From: Tubiluchus corallicola | Taxonomy: Eukaryota; Animalia; Priapulida | Direction of reading: 5' to 3' | Length of the DNA stretch: 64,000 bases | Assembly: GCA_030141605.1 (NCBI GenBank) | Contig: JAQGDQ010000052.1 | Location: 62,001 to 126,000 of the forward strand | Program-made: the position numbers and the translations under genes | Notes under the pieces: model-generated | The model's database searches: none | What the model saw: the letters and a program-made list of their open reading frames with translations, nothing else | What the model was told of the DNA's origin: nothing | In this document: one piece after another, positions 4,004 through 64,000 of the stretch | Layout: every line of letters starts with the position of its first letter | How positions within the stretch are numbered: position 1 is the stretch's first letter

Positions 4004-4317
4004 TATTTGAAGACTTAAATTGCCTCAGTTTGAATACAGATTAATCATTGCTATTGTACTGCTATTGAAATGTCTCTTCATATAAATTTCTACATCATTG
4101 CTTTAGTGAAAAGCAATGTGTAACATCTGCAAAGCTTTATTTAGTAAATTTGGTTAATGGAGTGGCATTTTGCAAATACCTCCAAGGTCCGTATGCAGTG
4201 TTTGACAAGGTTCCTATGTAGTGTTTGAAGTGTATCAGATAACTCTAACGCATTTGCATATGCGTTTACCACTCTTTCTTTCGCTTTTACAAAGTGATGT
4301 TGAAAGTAAATATTTAC

Positions 4318-34954: not shown

Positions 34955-37900
34955 ATGGTGTCTTATGAGTATGTGTTTTTCTGCATGGCCGGAGTACTCT
35001 TACAGTTAGTGTTACCAATAGTATCTCAGTTAGGTGAGTGAAACAATATATTTGTGTTTTTATTCCAGCTAGATTATCTTGTCAATTGCATTTTTTGAGC
35101 TCAGTGTCATTTCTATTAATGATTTAGTTGACTGTTTTTAAGTGCAGTGAATCTAGCCAGTGTGGCTTATAGCAAATTAACACATAGACATGAAAGAGCG
35201 TTAGGTATTAATTTTTTAAATTACATCGTTACTTGTAAATATGTAAGGTTTATTCTTTGAACTAATCAGTATTGTGAAAAAAAAATGATGATCTTTATTT
35301 GTGATGTTACTAAGTATTGCAATTACTGTTATCATCAAGAAATTTTATTGAATTGTGACTTTTCGGTAGCTAAAGTATTCTTAGTATTTTACATTTTTAG
35401 TGTTATATTTTGGTTTTTAACACCTTAGTTAGGTACTGAAGCCGCTTTACGAAAGTAAAAAAAGGAAATTATCACTGATTTTTGACTTTCTGTCTGTACC
35501 AAAAAGATTATAAGCTTATTTGAAATTCATCATTTAGAGCTTCTTATCACTTTACTATTTACACACGGTTCTTTTTCCGAACTTTTTCACCAAATCTGTC
35601 AGAGGTGTGACATTGTTCTTGATATGAAAAAATAATTTGTCCTGTTGACTAAATAAGGTGTTTGCTAAATTCAGAATCTTAAAATTAGTGATTAAACGTA
35701 TGTTCTAAGTTCTTTATATCTATTCCATCCTCGTTAGGCTCTCTTCTTTTTACTATAAATTGAACCACAAAGTCCATTATGACTTTCTTTGCAGAAGTAA
35801 AAATTTCCTTGTGTTGTCGTTGTTAGACTTACAATGCTTGCCATACCACTACCAAATCGTTTGCATGAAATAGCCTCATAGACTAGTTTGTATGTGTGTA
35901 AAACCTATCTCTTACAGAAGCTTTTCTCCTTGTATTATTTGATACATGTTTTTATAGAGGGCTATGGAGCAGATAGGAACCTGGTTTCTGTGTCCGGAAT
36001 ATCGTCTGGTGGTTGCATGGCAACTCAGCTTCATGTAGCCTTCTCGAGTACATTTATGGGCGTCGGCATCATTGCTGGTGCCCCTTATTACTGCGCTCAG
36101 AGTAACACCATCACTGCTACAACAGCGTGCATGACAACCCCTTCTCTTATATCAGGTATTTTTGTAGGTTATTTGCTTATTTATAACAGTTTCTTATGCT
36201 ATGCATGTGCATACAATTTTCAGGGATGGTGTTTGATCTACAAATTCAAAAACAGCTAGTAGTGTTATTTCTGTTAAATGGTATTCATTCGGAACTAGCT
36301 TAATAGAATGCTGCGTCCAAAAAAGATAGAGCCTGGGTAAAGAAAGAAAAAAGAAGAGCATTTGCTTGCATGTGATACTTGTTGCCTGAATGATATTTTT
36401 ACGCAATTCACAACCATTAGAGTTTGGCTAAATTTTGTTTTAAATTGAAAATACTTGTAAAGCTGAACTAAACCTTAAAAAAAGTTGTTGGTTGAATGAT
36501 GTGATGTTGATAGTTTAAAATGATTGCTTTTCATTGGTATTATGTCACTTTTTCATTATTTTTGTTTAGTCGCATTATTATGGTCTGAAACAACCTTGGC
36601 ACAAAACATTGGTGTCATAGATCATACATCAAACATGGCTGATGACAGGGTGTGGTTGTTTAGTGGAGCTACAGACAGTGTTGTCAATCCAGGTAAATAA
36701 TAAAACAGAACTGCCTTCTTGGTGTCATGCTGTAAACATTCTGTTTCTCTCCTAATGCTTCTGTTATCCTGTGTTTGTTTATCCCTGAATCTGATTATGT
36801 AAATTTAAGCACACGTGTTGTGGCCAGGGCCGGAAAATTTTCATGGACTAGTAAGTGCTTCATTTGACAGAGGGACGTAAAGTTGTACATACAATATGTT
36901 TTCTCAAAATTTTAATAGAAAAAAGTTAGGAACGTCTTCTCTTTATTGTTCCTATTAGCAAAAATGACAAAACTGTCCCACAATTACTCATCAAAGTTAC
37001 GATGTAATTATTACTAAAAATAATGTCTTGGTGTAAGATTTGTATTTTGAAACTTTGCAGCGGCCAAACGCCCACCAACCAGGTCTAATTGTATTTGCAC
37101 ATGTAGTAGTTATTATTGTGGCCATCTCGTTCTAAAAATAGGCCTGCTTCTATAAAGCAGCACAGCTAGCCTTCCAAATCCTACCAATCTGCAGTAGTAA
37201 AATTTTATTACATGATATTTTATACTTAAAAGTGTGATCTTGCTGACTCATTGATTTTTGGTTGGCTTCTAATTATACTATTATAGTTACCATAACTATA
37301 ATTGGTCTAGCCACCTGTGTTACCAACCGGTACAAGTTTTATACTAATATCTTAGATAGAGAGTTCACGGGATAATTGCTTTATAGCACTCAAAAATACT
37401 TTCTTGAGTAGTTAAGCAATGTCAAATGCTAGAAGTGCCCATGTGGGTGAGATATTTTGCAGAATGATCGTTTTCAAGTTGTGTTTTAGCAGTGTGATAT
37501 AAACACTGAGCTAAAGAAAGTCTAACGCTTCTTTCTTAGTATAGTTCTAAGATAGTTCTAAGAAATTTTAACAATAATGTCTAGCGTAAGGTAAAATTGT
37601 CTTGCTTCAGCATCACAGTTTTATATCTGCATGTGTGCTTGATGTGCATATAGACTACTAATTAATACTATGGATGAGTGTGTTACAGTGACTGAAAAAT
37701 GTGTGAAGATAGCAACAATATTGCCAATGAAGATACATGTAAAAACTAACATTTTAGACATCCAAATTTTCATGTGTGGCTCTGTGGTCTTCTCTGTTTT
37801 TGTAATTGTTTCCGGGTTAGGTACATCACCGGGATGCCAACTTTTAATCCTTGGGACATTTATAAGACTTTCTGTCTTTAGTTCTAGCACTGCGTTTGGT

Positions 37901-40900
37901 GAGATATGCTCAAGATTTATTTGTATTGGTGTTTGAACAGGAAATATAGTCATACAGAATGTTAAGAAAAACTTTGTAACCATTTAATTGCTGAGCAGAT
38001 TAACTTACCATGTTTGTTGCCTTTTTCTGACTTTTTTCCTTAAAGATTATAATGCTAAATAAGGTATTGTTTTAAATTCTTATCAAACATTAGCTTAATC
38101 ATTACAGCAAAACTCTGGTGCAAAATTACAGCCTGTACAACAGGAATAGACCGACATTTGTAGTACAAAGGAGAACTTTAATAATTAACTCACGCTTTTT
38201 CCTGCATTTTTGTAGTGTAATTGTTAAGATAGTGCAGTGCTGTAAGTTTTGATTTAGAGTTGAAATGATAGGATTTAATGCCAAAAAATAATCTTTCAAG
38301 TGTTATGGATTTTTTGCCTCAGATGAACGTGTGTTCAGTAATTGTCTCAGCTCGATATTATAGATAGTAATGAATAACAAAACCCCCAAAATATGTTTTG
38401 TGACTGTAAAGTTTTTCTACTTTAAAGGACGAGCAGTTGTGTTTCTTTGCTGAAAATAAAACATGCATGAAACAATACTGTACAAAAAGCAGTATGCCAC
38501 TTATAAACAACTCCGGCAAATAAATATTGACCTCACTCGATAATATGCTCATGTGGTTGAATTTATTAAGTACAAATTATTTGGGTCTGAATGTATGAGC
38601 ATTCAATTTAATACTGTAAATGAATAATAAGAATTGTCCAATCCAAATTCAATTTTAAATCACAATATTATTGAATTAATTATTGTTTTTAGCTGAAGAA
38701 TAGTTGCATAGATTGTCTGAAGCCTTTTTAAGTAAGCAGTAGGATTCGAAATTTGTTGCCTAATTTGAACTTATAGAATTTAAGTATTTTTTTGTGTGAA
38801 TTCACAGGTGTCGTTGAAAAAGTTGAAGAATATTATGAGAATTATGTTCATTCATCCAATATCAAAAGGGTTTATTCTGTGAATGCTGAACATACATTTG
38901 TAAGTAATCCAAAGATAAAATGTAATGGTTAAAATTATGTGTTTTGTTGGTTGCTCTGCTAAATTGTAAACTTAAGTTTAAAGAGTCAAGATTATAACAC
39001 TTGTCTCACAAATCTGTTTTATTAACTACCCAATGGATTCATTTAACCATTTGTATTGCTATGTGTTAAAAACCTATCTATTACTTTTGTGTTAAACTGA
39101 CCTAGTCTTCTAGGTATACTGTAATAGTTCAGTTATTTGGATTTTCCATTTATCCTGCGATTGCTTTACTTAGCTGTCAGTGCACTCTCTGGACACACCC
39201 CTAGTGTTCATAGTTTATATGTATTTTAACTCATGTTGCAAGGTTGACGTTTGAATCTAGACATCAGAAAAGTGTTGCCGTAACAAATTGAGTGTGTTAT
39301 CGAGTGAGATTGATATTTATTTGCTGGGTTTGTTTAGAAGTAGCATGTTGCTTTTTGTATAGTGCTGTTTTCAGCGAGTTTGTGTTTGTGTTTCCCATTA
39401 ATAATGTAACCTCGGAATTTATTCTTGTTTTATTGTCACGACAGCATTTTTTGCTCATACTGCTACATACTTTTAGAGACAACAATTTAGAAAAAAATAA
39501 TATTGTTGTTTGTCTTTGTGTTTAGCCTACACTTGATTATGGAGGTGCTTGTACTTCAAAAGAGCTTCCTTATATTGGGAAATGTAATTATGATGCTGCT
39601 TACGAGATGCTGAACCATATCTACGGCGATGGATTAATGGTATGATAAAAGTTTTGTGATTTGTAAATTTGTGATCTGTCATTGCAGTGCAAAAACTAAA
39701 GCTAAACAAAGTGCAGCTTTTGAGGTAAGATGTTATTTGAACATAATTTATTAAGTTCGCATGTAACGTCACTACTCGCTCGAACAAAACCTACTCATTA
39801 GAGATGATACACAATTTTTGAATGTTTTTTGCATTTTTCTAAGTTGTGCTTTCAATAGCAAAAATGTTTCGGCAATTTTTACATAATATAGAGCGGATCT
39901 CTAGAGTAAAAATGAATTGCATTAAATTGTGCAAAACCAACAACGCTAAATATGCTTTGTAAAGTTCCAAATGTGAGAAGCCAAAACCAGTTACAAAATT
40001 ATATTTTTTTATATTTGGAAACTTCTGTGTTAACATTTTTACCACTTACTAAAATTCACTTTCAAAATAGATATTTTATAATGTTGTCTTTGATAAAAAC
40101 TACATGTAGAAAAAAAACGCGATTTCTACAATCTTTCAAATAACTTTCTTCATTCGAGCTTGTTCATCAAATAATGTCTACAATAATTTTTACAATTTTG
40201 CAGTGTTTTAGTAAAAAAATTGATAGATCAGCAAATTTTTGATTGGCTAGTTTTAGCTCATGTTTTACACATTATTATTTTGTAGAGACCGACTTCTTCA
40301 ACATCTACTCCCGGAGACGTAAGTAACAGTTACTTGTTTATCAATGCATTATTACTTGTTAATAATAGAGTCCATGCAGAAGTAGCACAAACAAATCATT
40401 TTGCCATTTGTAAAACCTGAATTATTTATTCCTTTACTTGATATTAATAAGGGGGTGCACATACAAACTATTTTTGCTAAAAAAACAAAAAGGTGATGTT
40501 GTTTGATGTTCAGACTAGTAAAATTCACTGTTTTAATTTAATAACATCTAATGGACAATATGCGATATACAATTTTGCGTGTGTAAATATGTAAAGTGTA
40601 TGAAAATAGTTGTAATTTCCCAGTTTTTCTTTTTTCCAAGCATGTCTCTAGCAGGTATATTTTATTATGCTTTTTCAGTTTATACTGTTTGACACAAGAG
40701 AATTTTTTGTAGCCAGTCCTGGATCTTACTCAATGGACACTTACTCTTATGTTTATGTGCCATCAAGATGCAAAACAAATAGTGGTAAGTATTTTCAAGT
40801 TAAATTACATAAAAAATAAAACCTATTTTAAAGGAATTGTGTGTCTGCATTTAGAAGAAATATTGTCCATTAAGTCATTCTGGGGAGCCTAGCTAATTTA

Positions 40901-43470
40901 ACAAAGTTACTTACCCTGTGCATTAGCTGTTGTTTCTATTGTATCTAGCTTTTTTGGAGTGTATCCAATGCTGACTAATTGTTATCTAGCATGAAAGTGC
41001 TGTTTTGTCATACATGTTCGCTTAATTGTTTTAATTTTTTTCTAATAACTCTGATGTTTGCATCACGTCATTTCACTATGTTTGCCATTCATAATATCGC
41101 TAACGTGCTCAACGCCGTAAAAGTTTCATTTTTGGAAAATAAATAGAACGAAAAGCTGATCAAGTAATCATTGTATAATTATTGTTTTATTTGTTGGTCA
41201 AAAGAAAATAACTATGAAAAGATTGCAACAAGAAAACTTAAAACAAGAAAAGCATACGATGCTTATGTAATACACATGTGTACTTGCTGGTATACTAATA
41301 CAGTGTTACTTTGCATATTCTCAGGATGTAAAGTTCATATTGCACTACACGGATGCTCACAAGGAAGGTACGAAATATCTCACTGATTTTTATTATTGAT
41401 TTGTAGACAAACAGAATATCATATTGAACAATATTTGTGTTGTTAGGCTATCTAAAACATTATGTATGGCCAAGATATTGGCAGTTTGTGTTTGTAGTTT
41501 CCTTTTTGTTACATACCAGCTAACTTTTTACTGAGATGATTCAGAAATGAAAATATTTTTATTACGTAAGAACTTAGACCGCTAGGTATTTATTATTTTA
41601 CATTATTCGAATTATGCGATTTGTGTTTTTTGTACATATTCCAAACAAGGTCATTTGCTACTCTAGATAATTGGCCACTGTTACAATGTGAAAATACCAG
41701 CAGAACAATATTAATGCAATGTAATAATATAATGTAACTAATTTACTAGTGATCAGGGTATCTGCTGACATTCTTCTTGAAGTAGTGTTCACAGGAGAAA
41801 TTTTTCTGGTAAGGAATTTGATAAATGATGAGCTCAAGGAAAAACATGGATTTATGAACAGTAGTTTTGCACCCATTATATTCAAAATGCAAATAAGAGA
41901 AGTAGCAGCAAAATGAATATTCAAAACAAACAGGTGAAACTTGGGAAGTACTTGATGAGGACAGGTATCAAAGAAGCTTCATTTAGCAACTAATCTTCAA
42001 CTAGAGACTGTTGAAGCCTAACCCAGACAGACTGACAGTAGGATTTTGCAAAGGTAACAAAGGGCTAAGGTAACAAACTGAAGCACTAGCTCCGATGTGA
42101 CTGCAATAGTTCATGCAAGATCAAATGGATGATTTGAAAAGACACCTTCAGGTGTAGGATAATTGCGAGCATGCTACACGCATTCTATTTTCTTTGTAAA
42201 CGTTACATTATATCACTGTAAATACTATGTGAATTCATTATCATGATTATTATGCACATATTTTAATCTGTTGTTCTTAGCTTTTCTCAAGTGTAAAGTA
42301 CCAGACAAAAAGTAGCAATAGCAATAGTTTCACATTTATTTGGGTCCGCTAGCACACACATTCAGTTTTTGCATTTGGAGCAAAATTTAAACACCAGTCT
42401 GACTCTTCTGAGACACAATTAATAGTTCCTCAGTTTTTTTTGTTTTCTACAATAGATCTTTTATCCTTGCAGCCAATATCCATCAATTTTGGAAGCTTTT
42501 AGGTCTAAGGTTGAGGTGATATGGGCAACAGAATGATTAGAAATTGAAGGATCTGCTGTTGTTGAAAATAATGGAAGCTGCTGTCATGCTTGCACTGTTT
42601 CTAAAAGATCTGTTCTCATGTGCAAGTGATATTTGTCTCAGTTTGAGTTAGTCAATAATTTAGATAGGTGGTAATAATTTCTAATAGTTTCTTTGACTGC
42701 TATCTTGTGACTTCGCTGCTGACATATGATGAAGATTAGCCCAGCTTGCAACAGGAATCAGAAAAAATTGTCTGCAAAAGTTATATACTGTAACAAGCAA
42801 ATTTTGTTGCTTCAAAAAATCACAAAAATTTCAGTGTTATAAGGACACTGGCAAACTTCTGCTTCAATTTTTATTGGACGTTGTTTCTGTAACTGTGAAT
42901 TTTATATGTAGACATTCACTCGGTGATGAGTATGTCAGGAACACAGGATATAACGAAGTTGGTGAATTAAATGACATCATCATCCTCTATCCCCAAGCAA
43001 CAAAATCAACCTTTCCGTACAACCCCTATGGCTGTTGGGATTGGTGGGGTTACTCAAGTGTCAACTACCGTGAGTAGAAATTATTGCAGTTTTGTATTAA
43101 AATAACTGATTTTAAAACTGTTCACTTATAAGTGTAGTTAACATTGCTTTTTTATTTATTTATAAGAGCAGATGTTAGAGTCATTGCTAAGACTAACTTC
43201 TTTATTTACTTGGTGTAAACTTACTCTTTTAAAAACTCACTAAAGATACTAAGTTTTACCTATTTTTATAATTTATGTACTTTTTACATCACTTGACAAA
43301 AATTGTTAATAGATTTTGTAAATAAAACTTAGTACCGTCAGGTGATTTAGGCCTCCATTGTTGTCAGTAACTAGCTTGTACATAAAAACAAAGTTTTTGC
43401 TTTTTCAGCAAACAAGCTTGCACCACAAATGGTTGGAATTGAGCGTATGCTACAGCGTATTCTCTCATAA
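34955..43470 (+). CDS. Secreted PHB/PHA depolymerase-like esterase, copy 1; 10 exons, 335 aa
   Basis: Exons: 34955-35033, 35958-36155, 36570-36692, 38808-38899, 39526-39639, 40286-40318, 40679-40784, 41325-41367, 42912-43069, 43409-43470 (all GT-AG, in phase). Signal-peptide-like exon 1, [10 protein letters not shown] lipase box, [10 protein letters not shown] (Asp), AEHTFPT (His), [25 protein letters not shown] and [11 protein letters not shown]. Confidence 0.9.
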
Positions 43471-43774
43471 AATCTGTCTTATGCTTTTTTAAGTAGTCTG
43501 TGGTCCAAAAAATTTGTCTACACAGATTAAAAATAAAAGTGTGTAAAAAACATAGTAATTTTTTGTGTAATTTTTATGCTTAGGAACTGGCACAAAAAAT
43601 TTTTATTAACATAATTTTGATGCAGCATTATTTCCTGTTTGGGAAACATAGTTAATATTATACCTTGTATGATTTTTTTTGCTTCATTTTTTATGTGAAA
43701 TTTTGCAGCTATTTCTCTGGAATTTATAAAATTAATTGCTATAATTACTCGATACTTTATTAACTAAGAAAAGT

Positions 43775-43872
43775 AAGTTTAGTGGAAAATCCCGATATCT
43801 GAATGTGTGAATACGTCTGTTAAAAGTTTAGTGGAAAATCCCGTTATCTGAATGTGTGAATACATCTGTTAA
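43775..43872. repeat. Tandem repeat, 2 x 49 bp
   Basis: aagtttagtggaaaatcccg.tatctgaatgtgtgaatac.tctgttaa occurs twice. Confidence 0.9.
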
Positions 43873-44189
43873 CTACAAAATTTTGAGAGCAAATTAATAG
43901 CAAAACTGATACTAACAATACTGAGTCAAAATAACTTATAGGTTTAATTGTTCACTAAAATATTTGCTGCAAAATAATTGTGATTGTAACTAACAGAATT
44001 AATGGCAGCTAAATAAAAGCATTTTGTTTCTTTTATTTATTGTTTTTTTGTCAAAATCGAAGCACCCTTGCAAATCTGTGCAAATACTTACACAAGTAAA
44101 ATTGTCTATAATATTCTTAGCAATAGATATTTTCTGAGCATACACAGACAAATATTAGAATGTTAGAAATGATTAGAGGTGTTGTGGTC

Positions 44190-44420
44190 TTGCTGCACAA
44201 GGCATTCAAAATGATAAGGCATGTCTTACTTTTAAAATAAAAGAAAAAACATTCATATACATTCATTTGTATTGATCAGTGAGATTTGCATGCAACATGT
44301 GTTATTTTTCCCATAAGCTTCGCACAAAACATGTTACTGATGTGATACTGTCATAGAGTTATTCAAAAAAGACAGTCAGTGGCTCAATGAGAGATGGCCA
44401 TTGCCATCTTTATAATTTTT
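44190..44420 (+). pseudogene. Decayed duplicate of the promoter and first exon of depolymerase copy 3
   Basis: Colinear with 61190-61410 (tgcacaag.cattcaa.atgataa, gtgagatttgcatgca.catgtgtta.ttttcccata, agatggc). The ATG at 44394 reads MAIAIFIIFDK... and then stops with no donor site. Confidence 0.75.
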
Positions 44421-44968
44421 GATAAATCAGCAACAATATTCGAAAAATATTCGTTTTTTTAAAGATTTCTAATAGTTGGTTACATTATAGTTAACAAATT
44501 TGATTGTGTGGTAATTGCTTATTATGAGCGTTGATATGATAAGAATTGTAGAGCTGCCGAATTTTAGGTTTGAAATTTAGCTGATATCTAGGTTTTTTCA
44601 TTACTTTAGTGTTTGAAACTACAAAGCAGCAATCTATTTGCATTTCATTATATCTCGCTGCTAGAAAAGGGAGGTGTCAACATGTGTGTTAACTCTTTTA
44701 TTTGTTTATTTGTATTCTTGTTGTCTGGTGTTATGTTTGTTTCTCTTGTGCATTCTTTCATTCCTTTAGTTGTATATCTCTTTATCTGTCTATTTATTCT
44801 GTCTATTGGGCTCCTTTTGATGTGTATGCTTACTTTACTAATACAGTGGTAGCCGGTATGATTTTGACATTCCAGCAGTAGAAAATTGGATCGCTGGTAA
44901 ATATTGGGTATTATCTTATTATGCTTCGTGATTTAAAATGAACTCCTAAAGAGGACAAGTTCAGTTGT

Positions 44969-45362
44969 TAAACAATAGCCAATGTTTTCAGCTTAGATTT
45001 ACAAAAGTCAACAAGGGATTTGTGATGTACTTGCATTATATAAGGTATAAATTGCATACTTGTAACATATATTATAGTTATTCTGATGAAACGCATAAGT
45101 GTTTATTACTATCTCTAAACATAGCAGGCTACACACTATAAACAATCTAGCATTGATTCTAAAGTGCTCTATTATCTTAGTAAGAAAACTTATTGCAATT
45201 TCTTAATAAACAATAGCCAATGTTTTGAGCTTAGATTTACAAAAGTTAACAAGGGATTTGTGATGTACTTGCATTATATAAGGTATAAATTGCATAGTTG
45301 TAACATATATTATAGTTATTCTGATGAAACGCATAAGTGCTTATTACTGTCTCTAAACATAG
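44969..45362. repeat. Direct repeat, 2 x about 156 bp (44969-45124 and 45207-45362)
   Basis: The two copies are near-identical with a few substitutions. They lie at the inferred duplication junction. Confidence 0.9.
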
Positions 45363-45364
45363 GT

Positions 45365-45820
45365 CTGGTAATGTATTGTTTCGTACAAAATAACAACTCA
45401 AACAGGACATTTTTTAAATTTTTCTGATACTTAGTAATATAATTTTAACATGATTTTCTAGATGCTCAAAATGTTATTATGAGGGTGACGTATCAGCGTC
45501 GGTGATTGTTGATACTTTAAACGGGGTAGCCTGTCACGAGGGGCATAAAGTTTAGATTTTAAACTTTTCCCATAATTCATGGTGAGTCATAAATTGAAGT
45601 AATTTTTATTACACTAATAAAGCCATTATGTTATGAAGCCTTTTTTATATTACGACGTAATTTGAATGGTGCTGTGAGGTTGTTTTTTTGTGATATCTTG
45701 GCATAAGGCATGAAAAAGATGAAATTTCTAGGTTACTAATTATGGCCAGATTTAATTTTAGATTATTTTTAATAGTATTTTAAAAAATACTTTTAATAAG
45801 CATTTATGATATAACAGCAG
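45365..45820 (+). pseudogene. IDO pseudo-fragment (decayed exon 7 and 3' end of exon 10 with flanking intron)
   Basis: tgatacttagtaatataa...gatgctcaaaatg...aattcatggtgagtcataa matches 22781-22940, with the acceptor changed cag>cat. cttggcataaggcatgaaaaag at 45697 matches 27368-27389, with the donor changed gt>at. Confidence 0.8.
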
Positions 45821-50300: not shown

Positions 50301-53300
50301 CATGAAATTGTAATGCTAGTCTTACTACACTAGACGCCGCGTAATAGATTCCAGGTTAATAGACTCAATCGCTTAATTGACTCAAAAACATATTCAAATG
50401 TACATAAAAGCTGTCGGTAATTGGCTCAAATAACTCCACATAATTGACTCAATATTTTTGTTTCACGTGCTTCAATAGACACTTTCGTGTGACTAATAAG
50501 CTATTATGACTTTTATATCATCTTAATTCGCTTTTGTCCTATAATATACATAGAAACAATTATGTTAAGTACCGTTTTGTTTGTAAGCAGGAATTTTTAT
50601 CATATGCTAATGGTTTGCTTTGACCTGTCCGTCCACTGCAACTAACCTCGTTACCCAAGAATTCCTGGAAGCTAAACATTTAATCACTTGTTTAGAGGTT
50701 TGCTTTTGAAGCTCTGGCTGTCTTAGCCAGACGGTTTAATCAGTTAGATGTTGCTGTTGTGTTAGGGACGTACAGTGCAGTAAGTACATCACGATAGCAA
50801 GCGGGAACTTAGGCGAAACTTCAGACGAAGTTACTTGCGGCGAAACACGGGCTCCATCAACAGTTTAAGCACGCCAAGCACTAAGTATTTTACAAGAATT
50901 TATGCATCATACAACAACAGATTTTCAGTGTTTTTATCATTATCAGAACTTTGTGATCCGACTTCTTCATGATAAAATGAAGCAGCCGACTTTGAAGGAA
51001 TTTTTATAACTTTTGTAAATAAACAGATTTGTGTGATTTAGAAAAGTATACTTGTAATTTATTCAATTCAACTTCAATTTATTTATCTCTTTATAGTGTT
51101 ACAATAAAACATGATTAATAAAAGAATCTCTAATAAGTTTTGAAAAATGGTTAAAATGTATAGATAGATCTAGAACTAGAGAAAGGATAGCGAAAAGACT
51201 ATAAAGTCACCTAGTCTGCTATCCTTTACCGAATATAGATAAAAATATTTTTAGACACTGGTGGGCATTAATGTTATCAGTTTAATTTAGGAAACATTAG
51301 TAATTCTTAAAATTATGACATTTTCTATATAATCCAGAGAAAAGAATATACATGTAGTTTAATTAGCGGGCAACAAAATAAGGTCAATCTTGATTAAACT
51401 AAAAATTGCATTTAGATTTTATTTGAAATACAGGTCAAAATTATTATGAAATGGTAAAAACACTTTGGGTTAATAATGCTATTAATCAACAACAGGAGTT
51501 AAATACATTTTGATTTGAGTTCAACTTCATTATTTCTAGGCTTATTGATTAAGAACAAATCTACTGACTAGGACAATAATACTAAGTAATATAATTCTCA
51601 ATATACTGATATGACAAGCATTTAGCTATACAGGTTTTTTAGTAATTTTATAAAGGAGAGGTAAGACTTGTGCAATCTGTGAACAACACCTAAATCTTTA
51701 CTCATAAAATAGTATTGCAGTATGACTTTAATAATTACTCTGCTGTAAAGAATTATTGCTAATTCACTTACATAAATTAATATTTTAGAATATTTTTTTA
51801 ATTTTAACTGCACAAACGAATTTAGGCATTACTTCATTTCTAAAATTTATTAAAAAACCCTGGCAATGCATACTAAACTGGTGATCATACGTCTATACCT
51901 GTAATACTACACCCATCGGTTAATAGATTCAATGCTGTTAATTAGGTCAAAACACTTCGGTCCCAAAGTGAGTCTGTTAAGCGGCGCCTACTGTACTGTG
52001 TTTAGTAACTGTACTCAGTGGATGCATTTGTACCATTCCATTTATTTCAATATTTGTAGCAAACATAAAATATGTAGCTAAAATATGTAGGTCTACTATA
52101 ATGATCCAGTTGTGTGAATTGTGTATTGTTCTAGGACCGGGGTACTGTTGTGTTGTCATTAGTCCACTCTCTTAGCATCGAGTTTTGCCTATTACTAGAA
52201 AGCTATGTATATAGTGCAATAGAGATTGTCTGGAGTAATTTTTGCCAGGATTATGTAACGCTTTGGAGGCCTTCAGTAATTTTCGCCAGGATTATTTAAG
52301 TCCTTTGCTGTATTTAGTAACTTCACTGAAACTTGCTGCTTACAGAATTCCAGGTACACGGTTTCATGAAAGACAACACATGGAAGCAATAATTGGTTCC
52401 TTTTGTGTTTCTTTGCATACTAGTTCCTAAAGTCACATTTAAACATGCTAAACTTTCTTTTTTGTAGGTAATAGTTGTACCACACTACTGTTAGTTTGTG
52501 TATAGGTCATATTCTGTGTAGGCTTCCAGTTTTGAAATTAGCCTTGGAACCTGAAGTTCGTGAGGAAAGTGCAGAGACAAACTTAAGTGTCTTATTCGAA
52601 GTTTCGAATGATGTAATTACTGTAATGCTGAGCATCTTGTTTAATAGTAGTGTGCTAGCTTGTGTGGTACAGTAGTGTTCCAAGCAGCTTTATTTGCCTT
52701 GTATGTTGTTATGTAGTCTGGAATTTAATTGCTGTGTTTTTGACACACAGAACCTTTTGCCCACATTGCCAATTCCCGGTTAAGGGAAAATAAATACTTG
52801 ACTATTTGGACATAATTTGTTGTTTTTAGCCAACTCTTGATAATGGGGTTGCATGCACCATGAAAGAGCTTCCTTATATTGGGAAGTGTGACTATGATGC
52901 GGCTTACGAGATGCTAAATCATATCTATGGTGGTGGATTAATGGTATGATAAAACTTTAGTTCACAAGTTAAAAAATTAATAATTTTATTTTAGTATAGA
53001 TTGTAATATGTATAAGCATTTGTGATCTGCCATTACAGTGTTAAAACTAAGCAGCCTCAAGATGATGTAAAATGTAAAATCTAAAGTTGTAAAATGACGT
53101 TGCTTCACGAATAAATTTAAATAAGTATGAGCTAGGGTGTCCTTTGTTTAAAATGAAATTCAGTAATTAGCTATTTAATTAGAGCTGTATAATTAATTGA
53201 TTTTAAATTTCATGTTTCCATGAGCCAATCAAGTCGAAACTTGTTTGAAGTATGTCATTGGTTCAAAATAAAAAATTCATTAGTAGTAATTCATTAATTA

Positions 53301-56300
53301 GTAAGTTTTTAGATTTAAACTGCGTGTTTCAATAATCAAGCCTCATTCATTTGATGACCTACAGTGGGTTCTGGTGCACTTCTGGCACTTATAATTGCAA
53401 GCCTTGATGCTCCCATGTTAAACTTTTATATTTTGTCTGAAGAGAAAATTTTCATATAAGTTTGGTTTAAAATTAATATAGGTTTATTAATGAAATAGTT
53501 TTATAATCTATTGTAATAAATAAACCAGATCTCCAGTAGGGATGAAAATTTATGTGCAGCTGTTGAATACTTTCTTTTTTTCTAAAGAATGTGCTTTGAG
53601 TTAATTTTTGCATTTTTGGATGAACTTTGAGATTAAAAATGAATTGTATTCTTTGTAAAGCTAATGATGCAAACTCGGCTTTTTAATGTGCACTTGTAAG
53701 AAGTTAGTGCCCATTATAAATTTATATAAGTTTTACAATTCGGAGACCTTTGAGTTGAAGTTTTGATTATTCAACAGCAAAGTCAATTTAGTGTAGTTTC
53801 TTGTTTTCTTAAGAACACTAACAAACTGTCTTAGTGTGACTGTGTATTCCGGAGTGATTGTTGTCAGAGAATACTACACACACACAAGTCTAAAGCTTCC
53901 CTTCACTTTTGACGCTTCCTCTTGAGGGCTGTCAGAGTGGCTGTTTCATTGTGGTTTTAACTTATTGTTTACAGTGGTTTCTTGTCCTAATTGATAATTT
54001 ATTTTGGTATCCGGTAGTTTAGTACTTTTTTGTGGCTTTTCAATAGTGTCTCATTATTCACTTGTGATGTTTTTGGTTTGTTGTCAATACTGTGTCTGTT
54101 GGTACATTAGGAGAGTCCTATTCTAGCTTTTCTCATTTTAATAATTGTAAGCTAATAGTTTTTGTATTTGTGTGTAGATGTATGTAGTTGACTAGTTTTG
54201 CTACTTTTGTTATTTTATATGAAGTTTTTGACTTTGGGTGTACATTACAGTTTTTACTAATAGCTTAATACTTGTTTATATTTGTCTGTGGCATTGTGGT
54301 ATGTAGTAAAGTCTAGCCATATATGTTAACTCAATATTTAGCATTTCTTTTCTTAGAAAAGCTGGAACAATGGAGGAAACAATCACTTTTACTAACCGCT
54401 TCTTATACTGACTGCAAAATGTGTTTCGAATCAGTTTTGTTCTCTCACCTATAATGTTCTATGAGCTATGAAATAAAAATTTCACTTAACAATTTTTGCC
54501 TCTGCCATCACACAAACAATCTTTGTTAAAAAAAGCATAGTCTCTTAGGAATTAGTTTTGACAAAAACAGAAAAAAATATGGATTCAGTCTGACCAACAA
54601 GTCGTTTTAATCAAATAAGCCAAGACTGAGTGACACTTGCTTAATAATCATGCCCAAACAATTTTGCTAAACTCAGAAAAGTTTTAGTAAAAAAATGTAG
54701 AAATAATTGTTTTATGAAGGCTGTATTTGGCTCATGTTTTACATGTTATTATTTTTCAGAGACCAACCTCTTCAACGCCTACTCCAGGAGATGTAAGTAG
54801 TAGTAGTTCTTTTTTTAATACTTTTTCACTTTGTAACAATGACAACGACTAGCATATAAAAATTGAAAGAAAACTGGTGTTTGTTAAGAAGAGAAAGGCT
54901 TGTCAAAAATGTGCCTACTGAGGATGGTAGAGAAGTGGTCAAGCAAGTGCAGTAGCTGATAACTAACAGGTCTCAGTATGTGATATAAAAAAATTTTATG
55001 TGCAAAATTGAAAAAATATTCAATTTATAAATTAGCATTCTTATGGTAATGTGACTCCTGGTTTTTCTTTTGTTGCAAGTGTGGGCCATTAGCTTCAACA
55101 AATATATATATTGTTATTCATTTTCAGTTTATAGAGTTTGACACAAATGAATTTTTTGTTGCCAGTCCTGGATCTTACTCAATGGACAACTTCTCGTATG
55201 TTTACGTACCGTCAGGATGCAGAACAAAGAGCGGTAAATATTCTCAACTTAAATTACATAAAAGCAGAGCTGATTTGAAGAAATTAGAAATTTCTGCATC
55301 TTGAAGGGAAAATGTCCATTAATTAATTTAATTTACTAACACTCAATTAAAATTTACAGATAGTGTGTAACCATAGAACAATACACAATTATACAACACA
55401 ATGAAATATTGCGTTAAGAATAAATAAATTTTTGAGTGTTTTGGAGACACAAAGAGAAAAACTACTTACTTTATATTTGAGAACATTAGCAAGATCAACT
55501 AAACACAATCTTTTGCAGAATAATTTGTTGATTAAATCTCGTATAACTTAGTATGCCTCACTGTTTTTAAGAAGTTATTTTTTGTGTGCTTGTAACTAGT
55601 GTCTTCTAGAAACAAAGCTGTGCTTAGCTGCTTTTTCTGTTTTTCTCTAGCGATTTTTTATTGGACATTTTAGCTGTCAAAATTGCTATCAAAATTTAAG
55701 CAGCACTGAAGGCAAAATAAGAGTGGGTATCAAAATATAATTTAGACATTGCTGATAACCATCATATTTAAAAGTGACAAAAACGTTTGTATAGGAAAAA
55801 ATAAGCTAAGTTATTTTAAGTGTCATGGCACTGGTATCTCTAGCACATTTAACAATGCATGTACGTCTGTTGTAAAATGCAAAAAAGGCTGTTGTGTCAG
55901 AATTTTTCTCTCTTACCCACAAATGAAATACTACTGTATCAGAACTTGCATTAGCAAATTTACACAAATTGCAGTTGACTGTACATTACAAGCAGCCAAA
56001 AATAACCTTGAAATATATCAAGTAAGGAGGCAGGTAGTTTACTTTTTGAACTGTGTTTGTATAGAAACTGTGATGCCTGTATAGTGTTCCATTAGGCTGT
56101 TTGAACAATTTTGGTGTACTGAGTACTCCTGCTAATCAAATCTGTCATCTACAAGCAGGCTGCTTGCCACATGTTTCTGGGTTTTTTCAGACACATTAGT
56201 TAAATGTAATAATTAACCCTTCTGGTTAAATTTCATGAACATTATGTTTAGTCCAGGTTAGGGGTTACTAAGCAATTTTCGTACATGTTTGCAGTTATAA

Positions 56301-59300
56301 TGGTTGTTTTAGTATTGCTATTGTAACTTACAAAAACATTTCATACAAAGTATACTAACTCGGGCACCCTTTAGTTAGGGCTTCCATAGCTCATGGCTTT
56401 TGTGCAAATGAGTGAAATGATAGTGATTTCAGTTCATGGTTATCCATGTTTACTATTTGATCACAGAGCCAAAGGCAAGCCCATATGAAGCAAATTCAGT
56501 GCATGAGGCCAAATGCTAAAATGGGCCCATAGGTATTAGCGAAAAAGTCCCACTCTGACCATTCCCATAGGCATTAGCGAAAAAGTCCCACTCTGACCAT
56601 TTTTTTGTTATGCGCTAAATCAACTGTTATCCTTAAGATCCAATTGCTGGTAAAATGACGAATATTATATTGTGACTTCTATTTAATGTTTTATAAAGCC
56701 AGGCCTATAAAACTGCAAAAAACTACATATCTAGAGCTCACCTACAATGCCAGTAAAAATACATCAGTGTTACATACAATTAAAAGATTACAATTTCTAA
56801 GGTAGTGTAGTTAAAAAAACTTAACTGTAATTACAGCCACTTCACAAAGATTTGCTATTATTTATAGAAATGTAGAGCTGCTATCAATTATAGATCATAT
56901 TTTCTACAACTATATACATTTATAGAAATCTAGCACAAAGAATACTAGGTACTAGGCAGGTCTTAGGATAGGCCCTTTGGCAAGTTGTAAGGGCTTAACT
57001 ACATGAAGTTTAAAAGGCTCGTTTAAGCGCACATAAATATGAGGGGGCCAGGTCACTGCTCTCCTCCCCCACTTCTTACAGTCCTGAAAGAAGCAGCAGT
57101 AGGTTTTGGTATTCTTTTTCTTTCGAACTTCACATTGTCATGCAGTATACCCATTCTGCTAAGGAATCAAAACTGTCTTTGGTAAAGTGCAAAGAGCAAA
57201 CAGTACTGTCTGAGTATCCAATTCATTTCTATCGATCACAGGTACGAATCTGCTGTTCTTTTACAGTTTTTCCTTTGGAAAACATCAAAATGATCACATT
57301 TTGTCAGAAGTACTGTTTGAGCAGCACAAGGCAGCCTGGCAGTGAGACATTTGAAAGGCAGGAATGATTAGAAAACAGAATTTAAGATCAGAATTTAAGC
57401 ATGCTGCAATGTCCTAATAAATATACCTGTGATCTCACACTAAAACTTTCTCATGCTGTACCTCTTTAGTAAAATTGTTTTCATCTATTGCGTAAAGTAC
57501 ATTGAAAAGGTGCTGACAAACCTGTGATTTGAGCTCAACATTAAAAATACATTCAGTGCTCCTTTAAGCTCCACAAAGTGCGGCCTTAGGAATTTGTCAA
57601 TAATAAGCATTTAATCAACTTAGCCTTCTTTTTGGCCTTCTCCTAACAGTCATATTGCTGTATTTATACTGCTTGACATCACTAATATAATCTGTGTGGT
57701 GTTAAAGCTTTATTTTCACAAAATAAATAGAAAAACAAGCTGATGATGCAATGCTGCATAATTATTTGTTTGTGTAACCAAAATGGAACCAAAAGAAAAG
57801 AAGTGTGAAAAGACTGCAACAAGGAAACTTAAAATGATAATAATAGTGACACTAACATAGTACATGTGTATAATAACATGTTCTACTTGCAAATATCACG
57901 ATTCAATATTGCAATTTGTCATATTTTCAGAATGTAAAGTACATATTGCACTACATGGATGCTCACAAGGAAGGTATGAAGTATCTCGTTATTGGTTTTT
58001 AAACAACTCGATGTGGAATAGAATAATTGTCCTTTTGAAGTCAGGTTAGCTAAAGCATTTTAAAGTGATAATACGTAGCTGGTTGTTTCTTAGCTCTTCT
58101 TTCCTTGATACTATATAGCATTTTCCTGAGATGATTCAGGATTGTATTCCTAATCAGGATTCAGGATAATCATTATGATAAATATCTGAGCTGATGCCAT
58201 CTGTATTTTTTAATGTAAATAGTGCCAAAGAAGGCCAGTAGTCCATTTAGGTAAGTGGCCACATTTACAAAAAGAAAATGGGAGAACAGATCCAAAAAAT
58301 AGAATTCTTATAACTAATTTGTTGGAATGAAACAAAGTGTCTTTTGACATTGTTTCAATTTGCATCCTGTCAGACCCTATCAGATTGATAATATGACTTG
58401 CAATCTGTCAGTAGAAGCACTCAGGCATCTGCCTGATGTGGTTGTTGTGCTTCAGACAAAGCTGGATAGTGGACAAGCAAAGTCTTGGTGACTTTTTCGT
58501 TTAGACACTGATTGTTGCAACAGGTGGTAAGCAAATATTTGACACTTGCTTTGGTCTAGTGGTAAGGATAAACATTTGCGATGTTAAACTTTTTAGGTTT
58601 TTTGTATGGGTAACAGTTTGTTTACTGCTGCGATAGAACTGCAAATAGCTGAAAAGTAACCTTTTTACTAATAACTATTTGGTATTACAAATTACAAAAT
58701 TTTAACGATTTAAATTTCTTACTATTGCGTTTTATCTTTTATACCTGTAAATTTTAAGGCAGGATGAGTTTGCTAACTGTTTTTAGCATTACCATTTATA
58801 GCTCTAATGTTGATAAACATTATTCTGCATTTTTATACTGTTCAATAATTCATTGTTATTAAAATGATTCGTATTTAATATTATTTTATTTTGGAGATAG
58901 ACACACTGGTTTTTGTGCAACCATATTAGCCTTAACCAACAATCATCAACAGTCTGACTTGCAGAGACCTTATTGGCAACTTTTGACCAATTGATTTTAA
59001 TTTGTAATGCTTAAATCTCGTGAAATCAAGGAAAGGTGTTGCAGTTACCCTGCATGTTACTCAGGTGTAGACACGTAGATAGAAGTGTCCAAGACTGCTT
59101 GCTGCAGCTACGTTTGTGTATGTAAGCACACTCGCAATTGGCTAACATGGTACCTGGGGTGTGGCCTCACAGAGGTTACTTGTCCAGAAAAACAGTAAAT
59201 ACTCATTTGGTAATTTAGGAGAGCTCCAAAGATCCTACTGATTGGATGCATAATAGGATGGTAATTTGAGTAATCTGTATTCTTACTGGTGCATTTTATT

Positions 59301-60425
59301 TTATGTGCAGTGATAACAGAAGCTATTTTCTACAAAGATATGTGAATTGGTCATACATATGTTTGATAATCTGACCAGCAAAGATACTGTAGACGTGCTC
59401 ATTTTAAGGCGATTCCTGGAATACCCTCACATTGAGAGGTGTTTTACATATGGATTTGGGAAGATATGATCAACCTTTCTAAATTTAGGAATCAGTTTGG
59501 TGACAATAATTTTATTTAGGCCCACTGAGGGGGTGGTGCAGCCTGTTTTTGCAGTGTACAGGGAGCCACATACAAAAAAATTAAAAAGCACATCAGCTTT
59601 GTTTATAAAGTGAACAATATATAATTTTATGCAAGTAAAATAGTGACTTATTTTATGTACAATACATTGCATAGATTTTTGTAGTTTTTCACATGTGCTT
59701 ACTTGATAAGGTATTCCAAAACTAGCTTAATTTCATTTTACACTAGGCTACCAGCACATTTCTCTCCCTTCTGTGGACCTGTTTCTAACAGCTTCTTTAA
59801 TTACTGTATATCTTGACATTGGTACAAACATATGAGTGTAAGATTAGCCTAACTGGCAACAAAATTTACCAGGAAAAATTGCCTACAAAAGTTAGATAAC
59901 TGCAGTAGGACAATTTGATTTATTAAAAAATTAATTGTACATTTTATTTATAGGCACTCGGTTGGAGATGTATTTGCCAGGGACACAGGATATAATGAAG
60001 TTGGTGAATTGAATGACATCATAATCCTCTATCCCCAAGCAACTGATTCGACCATTCCATTCAACCCTTATGGCTGCTGGGATTGGTGGGGTTACTCCAG
60101 TGTCAACTATCGTGAGTTCTAATTGTTGCACTTCCCTGCTGAAATAACTTACTTTAAAACCGGTCACTTATAGGTGTAAATAATGCATCACTGTTTCACA
60201 TGTAGAAATGCTTGTTTGAGTTTGATCCATTTTGCGAGGTTCTGTAATGACAGAATATGTGTTACTAAATTTTATGAACAAAAAATGTAGTTAAATGAAC
60301 TAATTTAGGCATTTAGTGTTTTTAGTAACTACTTTGTATTAAAACAAAGTTTCACCTTTTCAGCAAACAAGCTTGCACCACAAATGGTTGGGATTATGCG
60401 CATGCTGGAGCGCATTCTCACATGA
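47387..60425 (+). CDS. Secreted PHB/PHA depolymerase-like esterase, copy 2; 10 exons, 335 aa
   Basis: Exons: 47387-47465, 48311-48508, 49218-49340, 50127-50218, 52830-52943, 54760-54792, 55128-55233, 57931-57973, 59954-60111, 60364-60425. Exon sizes equal those of copy 1. GISSG, GAADSV, AEHTF, LHGC and GCWDWWG are intact. A manual count gives about 58 of 335 residues different from copy 1. Confidence 0.9.
50328..51993 (+). mobile_element. pogo/Tigger-like internally deleted DNA transposon, about 1.67 kb, with a transposase C-terminal remnant
   Basis: TIRs cactagacgccgcgtaatag / ctgttaagcggcgcctactg with TA flanks. About 50800-51008 reads [29 protein letters not shown]...[11 protein letters not shown], resembling Tigger-type C-termini. 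Confidence 0.8.
56526..56601. repeat. Tandem repeat, 2 x 38 bp
   Basis: cccatagg.attagcgaaaaagtcccactctgaccatt occurs twice. Confidence 0.9.
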
Positions 60426-61211
60426 ATTTCCCTCTTTTCTTCTAAAGTTGCTGACACATCTTATACAAACAAAAAATTATAGTAAAAATTACAGAAACCT
60501 TTTCCATGTTATATCCATGCTAAGACATTGTTTCAGTAATGTAAAGTGTAGATAATAATTCCACAATAATTCTTGCACTTGAACTGAGGTAATTAAAGTT
60601 ATATGTGATTGCTTTACATTTTTTACATGTTATATACCATATACTATATATAACATATATAGTATATATAACAAACATGGTATACATAATGTTATACAAA
60701 TGTTATATATAGTATGCATGACATTTAACAAACATAGATACTCCATTGACTGTTTGTTAAATGTTTAAAAAGCATTGGGTCAGTTCTCTTAAAAAGGATT
60801 TTATAAAATTATCTGTTGCAATAATTTGATGCTTTATTAATTCCTAATTACTAATTTAGAGAGGAAGAAACATTTTGATTTCTGAATAGGCAACCTGTTA
60901 ATTACAAAAAAATGAGAGTAAACTAATAATAAAATTAACAATAATAATGCAGAGGCTTAACTGTCCAGTAAAGTACCAGTATTTGTTAAACAACGGTTGT
61001 GGTTGGTATTAGCAGTATTGTAGAAATTTTGATGGCAGCTGAATTAAACCATTTTGTCTTTTGATTTTGTGTTTTGTTTCTTTGTTCTAAATGCTGGTTT
61101 GTGCTGCAAGTTGCATGCTAGTGAAAAATATGTATAATATCTATGGTACTAAAAATTTTGAACGCGGATAGTGTCATTGAGACCTGGCTAAGTTGCACAA
61201 GACATTCAATA

Positions 61212-61268
61212 TGATAACACATGTTAAAATAAAAAAATACTATATTGATATTGATAAGGTATTGATAA
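61212..61268 (+). promoter_or_regulatory. Cluster of three TGATAA (GATA-type) motifs upstream of depolymerase copy 3
   Basis: tgataa at 61212, 61252 and 61263, which is 120-175 bp before the ATG. The AT-rich background lowers the significance. Confidence 0.3.
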
Positions 61269-61385
61269 GTGAGATTTGCATGCATCATGTGTTAATTTTC
61301 CCATAGGATTTGCACGAAATATTGTGATATAGATTTAAGACTTACAAATAGTCATTCAAGGACTGTCTCAGTGACTGAAGACAAG

Positions 61386-64000
61386 ATGGCTAATGCAGTT
61401 GTAATAACAATTGTGCTAGTTTTGTTTTCAATAGCAACGGCTGCAAAATTGGGTAAGTGGAACCTTTTTAAATCTTACACTGCAAGAATTGTTTTGCCGT
61501 CATTAATAATTATTGCTAATGAGTAACATTTTAAACAAGATAGTGTTTTAATGGTAGTTATTATTTAATACATGATTAAAGTGTTTTTTTTTTAATTTTG
61601 TGCATATCAATAATTATGGACGGAATGGAAGTAACTGCAAATTTATCTTTAGTGGTATAGAAAAGTTGACGTTTTAGAATTGGACTGATTCTTGTATTTT
61701 TAGATTGTATGTATAGTCCTAAATAGCTACTTACAGGGTTAGGCATAGTAATAGTACATTTTCTGCCATTTAATATATACACTTTTTATTTAGAAAGAAC
61801 TTGCTTTAAACAATTTGCACCTTATTTAAAAATACATTATAAATTGTTATTGTGCATATAATATTTGCAAATACCAGGTATAAAACTAGCATGAAAATAC
61901 TTACTTTATGATAATAAATTTTGTATTTCAAACAAAATGATGTTTAAAACAAATAGTTGCCATTTATTTTTCTTTTAACAGTAAGTTAGCCTCTCTGTTT
62001 CTTGTATGTAGAGCTTGAACATGATAGCCTTGCTTGCTGTCAGTGGTAAAATTTTGGGGAAAAGCTGTGCTTATTGTCTGAATGAAGCCACTTAACAAAA
62101 TACAGCTTTTCACTTAAAACACAACTCGATCACTATGTGTGCATGTCAGCAAAGACAAGTGCAACAAACTGAGGTGATATGGAATTTGAATCACTCACGA
62201 CTTCAAGTCAAACTTGGCATATTAGTCTTATCAGCAATTGGCAAGCAGCTAATACTGTCGGATGTACATGATTGCCTCATGATTGTTTTGTAAAATGGCA
62301 TTTCTGATTAGTTTAATGATGTTGTATAATAGTATATAAATGAGTGAGTGACAAATTTAGTTGAATCCATCTTTATAGCTGCTAATTTGGTTTTCATAAA
62401 CTTGTTAGGGTCAGTAGTGTATTTGACATGTTTTAGGTTATGAATACTGTTGACACTCTTGGCAGATAATGCTGTAAAAGCTTAGGGAACATTGGTTCTC
62501 ATCATTAATACTGTTAACTGATTACTGTTTGTAAAATCTTATGAAACAGGTGGTTATGGTGGGGACAGAACACAAGTTTCTGTATCAGGCATGTCGGCTG
62601 GTGCATTTTTTGCTACTCAGTATCATGTCATTCACTCAAGCAAAGTTATGGGGGCAGGAATCATTGCTGGAGGTCCATTCTGGTGTGCTAGAGGGAACTT
62701 AATGACTGCTCTTGGTGCTTGCATGACATCTCCTAACAGCATTGACAGTAAGTTTTCAAATGCATGCATAACAGTATCTAAACTGAGTAGTGATTACTGG
62801 TGTTGGTTAAGTATCACAGAATATTTAATGCAAGTATTATATCACAAGAAGTATTGATAGAGAATGCAACTAAGCACTTATTAATTCTTGATAACAGAGG
62901 AAGGTTTCTTATGTGCATGTGTTTTATTAATAACTGCAGCTCACAGTGATTTATTTAACTTATATACCTTTTTTGTAAAAAAGCCAAAGTGCCCATTAAG
63001 TCTCAAATTTCTTTTATTTTATACACAAGCTTTTGTCCTTCAGGTCTTCATCAGCTGAAATCAACTTGTATGACCTACGAAGACCATTTCACTATCTAGG
63101 CCACACAAGTTGATTTCAGCTGATGAAGTTCATGAAGAACTAAAGCTTCTGTGAAAAAAAATTGAGATACCTAATGGGCACTTTGACTTCTTCGTGAATA
63201 TGACCATGGCAAGTGTCAGAACAGCACTATCTTATTTCCAAGCTACATGTATACACTTTTTGATGTGTACACATTGGCATACTGAAAGCCGAATTGCAGC
63301 ATTAACGGCAAGATATTTATGGCATGTGATACATGTGCATATGATATTTATGACCCAAGCATGACTCAAGGATAAACGTCTAATATGAGCCACTGGACCA
63401 GCAGAGGTGCTCAACCACTTTTCGATATATATACATCATCCTTTCTGATTAAAATGGTAAATAAAACGACTCAAAGCAAGTATCACACTATTTGCAAGCC
63501 ATGATGCGTGCGTCCGTATCCACTCAGCCATGAACTATGAGTTGGGTATGTACATTGTAATTTGTGCACTAAGTGCAAAAAGCGTTGCGCTTCCTTCTTT
63601 GTATTTTTTAAGTTTTATGTCGAAGTTTAGACTCTAAAGCATGAATTGTTATGCATGTCTCAAATCTAGAATTTACACTGTCTGCAAATTAATATGTGGA
63701 AAAGGCAGTAAATTATCACTTTGTTTTAAATTGCTTTAAAATTTGTCTGATTACATTGCAATCGACTACCATAAGTTTGACATATAATTTAATTTATACA
63801 TTGAAGATCACCTGAACCTGAAAGCCCCCGAAGTGTAAATGTGAACTGAATTATAAGCAAGTAAATAAATACACATTGGAAATAGTGGTTTTAAGTCAGC
63901 TCTACATGCACAATTGTGTCATTGGCGATATCCACATTGTTTTTTAGATGGCAGACTGTTTGATCAGACAGCGACTTATGCTGCCAACAGCCAAATTGAT
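61386..64000 (+). CDS. Secreted PHB/PHA depolymerase-like esterase, copy 3 (divergent, truncated by window end)
   Basis: Exons 61386-61452 (MANAVVITIVLVLFSIATAAKL, signal-peptide-like), 62550-62747 (198 nt as in the paralogs; VSVSGMSAGAFFATQYHV...GAGIIAGGPFWCA) and 63948 to the window end (NGRLFDQTATYAANSQID). Confidence 0.85.
62981..63189. repeat. Long imperfect palindrome (foldback element) with decayed hammerhead-like cores
   Basis: Arms caaagtgcccatta / taatgggcactttg and a perfect 24-bp pair cttcatcagctgaaatcaacttgt / acaagttgatttcagctgatgaag. Confidence 0.85.

Follow-up and report, generated by a model that had tools for sequence, protein, structure and literature searches.

A tandem array of intron-split type-2 polyhydroxyalkanoate depolymerase genes, probably digestive, in the priapulid Tubiluchus corallicola

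The 64,000-nucleotide stretch of Tubiluchus corallicola contig JAQGDQ010000052.1 analyzed here, hereafter called the window, carries on its forward strand two complete genes and a third gene cut by the window end, arranged side by side. These were interpreted as tandem, intron-split host genes for single-domain type-2 polyhydroxyalkanoate (PHA) depolymerases that are predicted to be secreted and that likely hydrolyze bacterial polyhydroxybutyrate (PHB) in digestion, and we place the probability of this interpretation at roughly 0.8. Judged from sequence, membership of the window genes in the type-2 family is virtually certain. By analogy with characterized relatives, hydrolysis of PHB by copies 1 and 2 is strongly expected and a digestive role is rather probable. 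Animal PHA depolymerases are already known, having been described and tested in 2026 in a study consulted here in sections (PMC13642032). What is added here is the three-gene array, the substitutions in the crevice of copy 2, the Gln-to-Thr replacement at a near-invariant site, and the old intron positions.

The copy 1 start codon is the ATG at position 34955. Spliced copies 1 and 2 each form a 1008-nt open frame of 335 amino acids plus stop, assembled from 10 exons whose sizes are the same in both genes (79, 198, 123, 92, 114, 33, 106, 43, 158 and 62 nt), with the same intron phases and with GT..AG ends in 9/9 introns of each. The two copies are 83% identical in protein (278/336 codon positions) and in nucleotide sequence (838/1008 bases), and the lengths of their introns differ up to fivefold. 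The three exons of copy 3 inside the window amount to 106 codons without a stop. Its two introns occupy the positions that introns 1 and 2 have in the complete genes, and over the shared part it is 50% identical to copy 1 and 47% to copy 2. A profile built from 135 family proteins scored spliced copies 1, 2 and 3 at 492, 485 and 123 bits, respectively, and no fourth copy was found with it in the six frames of the window. The first exons are hydrophobic in all three copies, with 9-residue Kyte-Doolittle means of up to 2.6, 3.1 and 3.6 for copies 1, 2 and 3; a signal peptide is predicted from this hydropathy, although in copies 1 and 2 it would have no basic n-region. An earlier note on this DNA, made from the sequence by a model, had described at least three tandem same-strand, intron-rich paralogs with nine spliceosomal introns and signal-peptide-like first exons, and that description was borne out. 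Copies 1 and 2 show a synonymous divergence (dS) of 0.68 and a nonsynonymous divergence (dN) of 0.093, with dN/dS of 0.14, and are therefore paralogues under purifying selection, not alleles. The array would be best explained by an old duplication, represented by copy 3 at about 50% identity, and a younger one that separated copies 1 and 2. A non-coding stretch downstream of copy 1 (44194-44366) is 73% alike to one downstream of copy 2 and just upstream of the copy 3 start (61194-61359). This stretch delimits the unit that was duplicated, and it may hold a regulatory element.

Copies 1 and 2 share a series of motifs characteristic of the family: GISSG at residues 40-44, SGxxDSV at 124-130, AEHTF at 160-164, HGC at 257-259 and GCWDWWG at 303-309. 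The lipase box thus lies near the N-terminus, ahead of the HGC motif, which is the type-2 order. Copy 3 carries GMSAG, and the Ser is the only residue of its triad that falls inside the window. The Ser-Asp-His order, the late HGC and the NPxGCWDWWG motif, as well as GMSAG in copy 3, were found at the positions that had been given for them. In type-1 depolymerases of denatured short-chain-length PHA (dPHAscl), and in acetylxylan or feruloyl esterases, HGC precedes the lipase box, whereas the order is reversed in the window copies, and the type-1 family NF050058 scored below the type-2 family NF050059 for every window exon that matched both. The profile search that the earlier note had proposed also favored the latter: for 12/13 exon queries the best NCBIfam family was NF050059, the type-2 extracellular short-chain-length (scl) PHA depolymerases, and copy 2 exon 4 matched no NCBIfam family. 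Copy 1 exons 2, 3, 4, 5, 7 and 9 covered positions 4-64, 73-108, 111-140, 142-175, 188-218 and 236-287 of this family in colinear order, at 14-83 bits each, set against a family cut-off of 280 bits that applies to whole proteins. Pfam was weak on single exons (Esterase_PHB, E 0.012, for exon 2) and gave no match for exons 5 and 9 alone. The best Protein Data Bank (PDB) match was 2D80/2D81, the PhaZ of Penicillium (Talaromyces) funiculosum, for copy 1 exons 2 and 9 and for copy 3 exon 2; exon 3 alone returned no PHB depolymerase among its PDB matches.

A full-length relative that is 53% identical to copy 1, hereafter called P0002, served as a stand-in for whole-protein scans and fold prediction. 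P0002 and a further relative, P0005 (53-54% identical), scored 347 and 346 bits against NF050059, above the cut-off of 280. P0002 aligned over its full length with 2D80 (E 1e-47), and its predicted model (mean pLDDT confidence 94.5) superposed on 2D81 with a template modeling (TM) score of 0.86 and E 7e-33, the next fold (8DAJ) scoring 0.30. The superposition on P. funiculosum PhaZ that had been suggested as a check was therefore obtained for the stand-in, which represents the window proteins in it. All eight conserved cysteines and all catalytic residues are retained in copies 1 and 2. Trp307 is also retained, at a site that we take, after Hisano 2006, to have a role in substrate binding. Mapped through P0002, residues Ser42, Asp128, His162 and Cys259 correspond to S39, D121, H155 and C250 of the fungal enzyme, of which the first three form the triad and the last is the oxyanion residue according to the part of a review consulted (PMC9878459). 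The fungal fold is a circularly permuted alpha/beta-hydrolase, as stated in the available text of PMC13552848, and the window proteins would resemble it, to judge from the P0002 model. They share with the fungal enzyme the Ser-Asp-His order followed by HGC and the lack of a linker or binding domain; that enzyme differs in its fungal origin, in being about 36% identical to P0002, and in a shorter loop before the CWDW motif. Bacterial type-2 dPHAscl depolymerases (NF050059) are similar in the sequence of the catalytic domain and in motif order, but many of them add Fn3 or other C-terminal domains, whereas no extra domain was found in the window proteins, and the window proteins form no clade with them. 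The earlier assignment to single-domain, Penicillium-like type-2 PHB depolymerases is thus upheld by PDB, NCBIfam and fold comparisons, and also by the tree and intron evidence that follows.

The identity of copy 1 was 44-54% with 21 named animal proteins, 43-45% with three from protists and 39-44% with five from bacteria. Trees were computed under LG+G4 from rows taken by name and closeness from 139, then about 290 matches, and contained no fungal rows. In a tree of 54 rows the three copies fell with bilaterian and other rows, split with support of 97/98 from bacteria, protists and two more rows, one of them a sea cucumber. In a tree of 27 rows copies 1 and 2 stood among animal rows (84/95), and the place of copy 3 among eukaryotes was unsettled. 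The phylogeny proposed for telling vertical descent from horizontal transfer thus set copies 1 and 2 among animal sequences and, in the smaller tree, left copy 3 unplaced. Intron positions gave a separate line of evidence. A metagenome search with exon 2 yielded five loci, among which L002 is an intron-split eukaryote gene at 3814-6691 of its contig, with three exons seen; its protein is nearest P0170 and P0193 (56-57%). Over codons 27-164, L002 shares 3/4 intron sites with the window genes in both position and phase (27, 134 and 164), while it is without the intron at codon 93 and carries a separate one at codon 68, the proteins being 52% identical. The chance of such sharing is about 1e-6 if sites are free and 1e-3 if tenfold fewer sites are usable. 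For P0004, a truncated millipede protein, the alignment breaks off at codon 249, where intron 7 lies, which is a weaker hint of a shared intron site.

Evidence for splicing came from close relatives. A 193-base contig from run X2 passes from position 36689 straight to 38805 and so omits intron 3, which is 2115 bases long with GT..AG ends; it differs from copy 1 at 26 bases, and its status as RNA is a guess. A protein encoded on a 1765-base contig, P0001, reads through exon junctions 1-2, 2-3 and 3-4, matches copy 1 at 77% and copy 2 at 83% identity along 138 residues before it leaves frame, and is sister to copy 2 (98/84) in the 54-row tree. These two sequences are relatives or paralogues and not the window genes themselves, so they speak for the exon model and, as regards transcription, for close kin only. 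Run X1, with 0.30 of words, is possibly the source sample itself, and it was not treated as independent. Over 40686-40711 in copy 1 exon 7, a contig of run X1 has five other letters, three of them copy-2-like, for which a diverged allele, gene conversion and a further paralogue are candidates. Taken together, the placement of copies 1 and 2 among animal sequences, the dN/dS of 0.14, the spliced relatives and the three shared intron sites support the view that the copies are host genes and not contamination, as had been argued earlier from the introns and the neighboring genes; the fold and family evidence agrees. The linkage itself was also recovered, with the neighbors assigned by Pfam to RWD + Prp3_C (RWDD2), IDO and 7tm_1, the last a class A G protein-coupled receptor (GPCR).

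The earlier note mentioned an animal homologue from a gutless oligochaete and inferred a digestive role, and this role was put to the test in other animals by Zeidler et al. (2026, Nat Ecol Evol), who, in the sections available, report 195 PHA depolymerases (PHADs) from 66 animal species in nine phyla including Priapulida, Olavius among the species (PMC13642032). All five of the animal enzymes assayed there, from Olavius, Amphimedon, Lumbricus and two from Folsomia, released hydroxybutyrate (PMC13642032). The proteins described there resemble those of the window: single-domain type-2 enzymes of about 330 amino acids, in multi-copy sets (up to 14 homologues in Folsomia and 1-6 in gutless oligochaetes), secreted (as predicted here) with a signal peptide in about 75% of cases (PMC13642032). 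The Olavius gene has ten exons and nine introns, as do window copies 1 and 2, and its Ser42 and Cys259 bear the same numbers (PMC13642032). Also in common is an intron-containing host gene that groups with animals, a grouping that is moderately supported for copies 1 and 2 and unresolved for copy 3. The window genes differ in the Thr of copies 1 and 2 at a near-invariant Gln and in their species, the sole priapulid (one row) in the supplement tables examined being Priapulus caudatus; the sections of the paper that we consulted contain no discussion of tandem arrangement or of shared intron sites. Beyond that paper, our literature search found no report on priapulid or intron-bearing animal PHA depolymerases, and a bioRxiv search found no preprint. 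Vertebrate family members from newt, lamprey and spadefoot toad (P0162, P0194, P0205) were present among the matches. Many of these vertebrates have microphagous larvae. The vertebrates in the published table are Petromyzon, Xenopus and Bufo (PMC13642032).

Because relatives in other animals break down PHB, the window enzymes likely help the worm digest bacteria. By comparison with 2D81, Ser42, activated by His162 and Asp128, would attack the PHB ester; the oxyanion hole would consist of the main-chain NH groups of Ser43 and Cys259, and a hydrophobic surface crevice would stand in for a separate binding domain. The product, to judge from tested relatives, would be 3-hydroxybutyrate from denatured granules of lysed bacteria. 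Secretion may be into the gut or digestive vacuoles, where the enzymes would act on ingested bacteria, a step proposed from ecology only. The available text of PMC12285723 presents small priapulids as feeding on deposits or detritus, and that of PMC4844607 presents P. caudatus as a predator. The earlier note had named symbiotic as well as dietary bacteria; there is no sign of symbiosis in the window, and diet is the simpler source of substrate.

Several observations weigh against this interpretation, and some of them favor a different natural substrate. Of the 55 columns with at least 90% invariance across 135 family rows, 54 are conserved in copy 1 and 51 in copy 2, and copy 3 matches all 16 that it covers. 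Copies 1 and 2 both have Thr219 where Gln occurs in 135/135 family rows; profile score was the main basis on which these rows were picked, and in a second set the site holds Gln in 61/72 rows, a gap in four and another residue in seven. Copy 2 also departs at Ser66, Ala67 and Met131, whose fungal counterparts A64, G65 and V124 contact the nucleophile or the bound trimer in 2D81, according to the part of PMC7034887 consulted. The window copies could therefore be true family members whose main substrate is another ester or polyester, such as short complexed PHB or other microbial or algal esters, with activity on PHB incidental or lost in some copies. A type-1 relative that also cleaves polylactic acid and polycaprolactone (PMC9601781, seen in part) points the same way, as do the low product yields of some animal enzymes, with medians of 0.3-3.1 nmol per mg in the published sections (PMC13642032). 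We nevertheless regard this alternative as rather improbable: the catalytic residues and conserved cysteines are all kept, all five reported animal enzymes act on PHB, and the changes in copy 2 appear to be tolerated, since Ala67 occurs in 6/135 family rows and 14/72 rows of the second set and Met131 in 2/135. The isoelectric points of copies 1 and 2 are 5.2 and 5.3, compared with a family median of 5.9, and show no charge shift. Also to be counted against the interpretation is that the predicted fold was that of P0002 rather than of the window proteins, and that copy 3, known over 106 residues, could be broken beyond the window end. The likely priapulid lineage of the stretch rests on one neighboring gene: the best named match of the RWDD2 exon is P. 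caudatus (56%, the next named match 45%), with which it groups at 100/99 on a long separate branch, and an identity of 56% indicates a species other than P. caudatus. Early matches and the exon number had pointed to a millipede or annelid, a candidate given up in the light of the RWDD2 tree. A PHA depolymerase of P. caudatus was absent among the named sequence matches obtained.

That the genes entered this lineage recently by horizontal transfer, from bacteria or from fungi, and gained introns later appears very improbable. The family is common in bacteria, a case of transfer in bdelloid rotifers is given in the sections of PMC13642032 that we consulted, and the lack of fungal rows in the trees and the unresolved place of copy 3 leave room for such an origin. 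The animal placement of copies 1 and 2 in both trees tells against it, as does the rejection in the 27-row tree of a grouping of all three copies with five bacterial rows (p-AU, from the approximately unbiased test, 0.034); the intron sites shared with L002 at only 52% protein identity also speak against it. The three copies as a group of their own were neither shown nor rejected (p-AU 0.41). It is likewise highly unlikely that copies 1 and 2 are two haplotypes separated in assembly, or that the stretch consists of contamination or pseudogenes, even though the closest spliced relative, P0001, loses its frame after residue 138 and run X1 has further variant contigs over copy 1. The exon identity of 83%, the dS of 0.68 and the unequal introns are against haplotypes, and both frames are intact under purifying selection in a window whose GC content is even throughout at 29-37%.

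Beyond host enzymes that digest bacterial PHB, the array may be tentatively viewed as a diet-driven, functionally divided set in a small deposit-feeding priapulid, with one gene in the predatory P. caudatus; copy 1 would have the usual crevice, copy 2, with Ser66, Ala67 and Met131, would prefer another PHA side chain, and copy 3 would be an old paralogue. We consider this unlikely. If true, copy number would follow bacterivory inside a single phylum, and introns at shared sites would provide an independent marker of single origin to set beside the 43.8% bootstrap of the protist-plus-animal node in the published tree, as given in the sections consulted (PMC13642032). Since it was not until 2026 that animals were shown to digest microbial PHA, intact members from a poorly sampled phylum are of some use. 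The window genes add a second priapulid lineage to the family and offer natural paralogues for testing substrate differences between copies, and their intron sites could test single origin; they leave the picture drawn by Zeidler et al. unchanged.

Table 1. Coordinates of the three depolymerase gene copies and of selected copy 1 elements in the window.
Feature	Position	Strand	Evidence
Copy 1, complete gene, 335 aa	34955..43470	+	Open frame, 9/9 introns GT..AG; six exons match NF050059 in order
Copy 1 exons	34955-35033, 35958-36155, 36570-36692, 38808-38899, 39526-39639, 40286-40318, 40679-40784, 41325-41367, 42912-43069, 43409-43470	+	Splicing by coordinates
Copy 1 exon 1, predicted to encode a signal peptide; hydrophobic	34955..35033	+	Hydropathy; N-terminus also present in P0001, a spliced relative
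Copy 1 exon 2, lipase box with Ser42 (codon 36002-36004)	35958..36155	+	2D80 E 1.1e-9; NF050059 E 2.2e-23
Copy 1 exon 3, catalytic Asp128	36570..36692	+	NF050059 positions 73-108, E 1.5e-5; Asp in 135/135 family rows
Copy 1 intron 3, 2115 nt	36693..38807	+	Skipped exactly by 87%-alike run X2 contig, GT..AG; site common to locus L002
Copy 1 exon 4, catalytic His162	38808..38899	+	His in 135/135 family rows; NF050059 positions 111-140, E 0.018
Copy 1 exon 8, HGC motif with oxyanion Cys259	41325..41367	+	Equivalent to Cys250 of 2D80 via P0002
Copy 1 exon 9, GCWDWWG motif	42912..43069	+	2D80/2D81 E 4e-6; NF050059 E 3e-20
Copy 2, complete gene, 335 aa	47387..60425	+	Open frame, 9/9 GT..AG; 5/6 exons scanned match NF050059
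Copy 2 exons	47387-47465, 48311-48508, 49218-49340, 50127-50218, 52830-52943, 54760-54792, 55128-55233, 57931-57973, 59954-60111, 60364-60425	+	Splicing by coordinates
Copy 3, cut by window end; exons 61386-61452, 62550-62747, 63948-64000+	61386..64000	+	NF050059 E 1e-22; 2D80 E 5.3e-6

Other features were observed elsewhere in the window and within the introns of the array. IDO-like exons on the forward strand at 12670-27759 match Pfam IDO positions 21-57, 53-89, 210-229 and 290-320 in order. The same strand carries an intronless class A GPCR gene (19836-20825, 329 codons, 7tm_1 E 6e-32), which is thus apparently nested in one of the IDO introns. Intron 4 of copy 2 contains a high-copy repeat (50325-51995), with a second copy, 74-86% alike, at 29334-30114; the depth of its run X1 contig is 900-5000, compared with about 10-30 elsewhere, and the repeat is likely a mobile element. 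An imperfect palindrome of about 215 bases (74%) at 62978-63192, in intron 2 of copy 3, resembles a miniature inverted-repeat transposable element, and a similar fold-back occurs at 22160-22579. Two near-identical direct duplications were found, one of 188 bases (99%) at 30516-30913 and one of 156 bases (97%) at 44969-45362.

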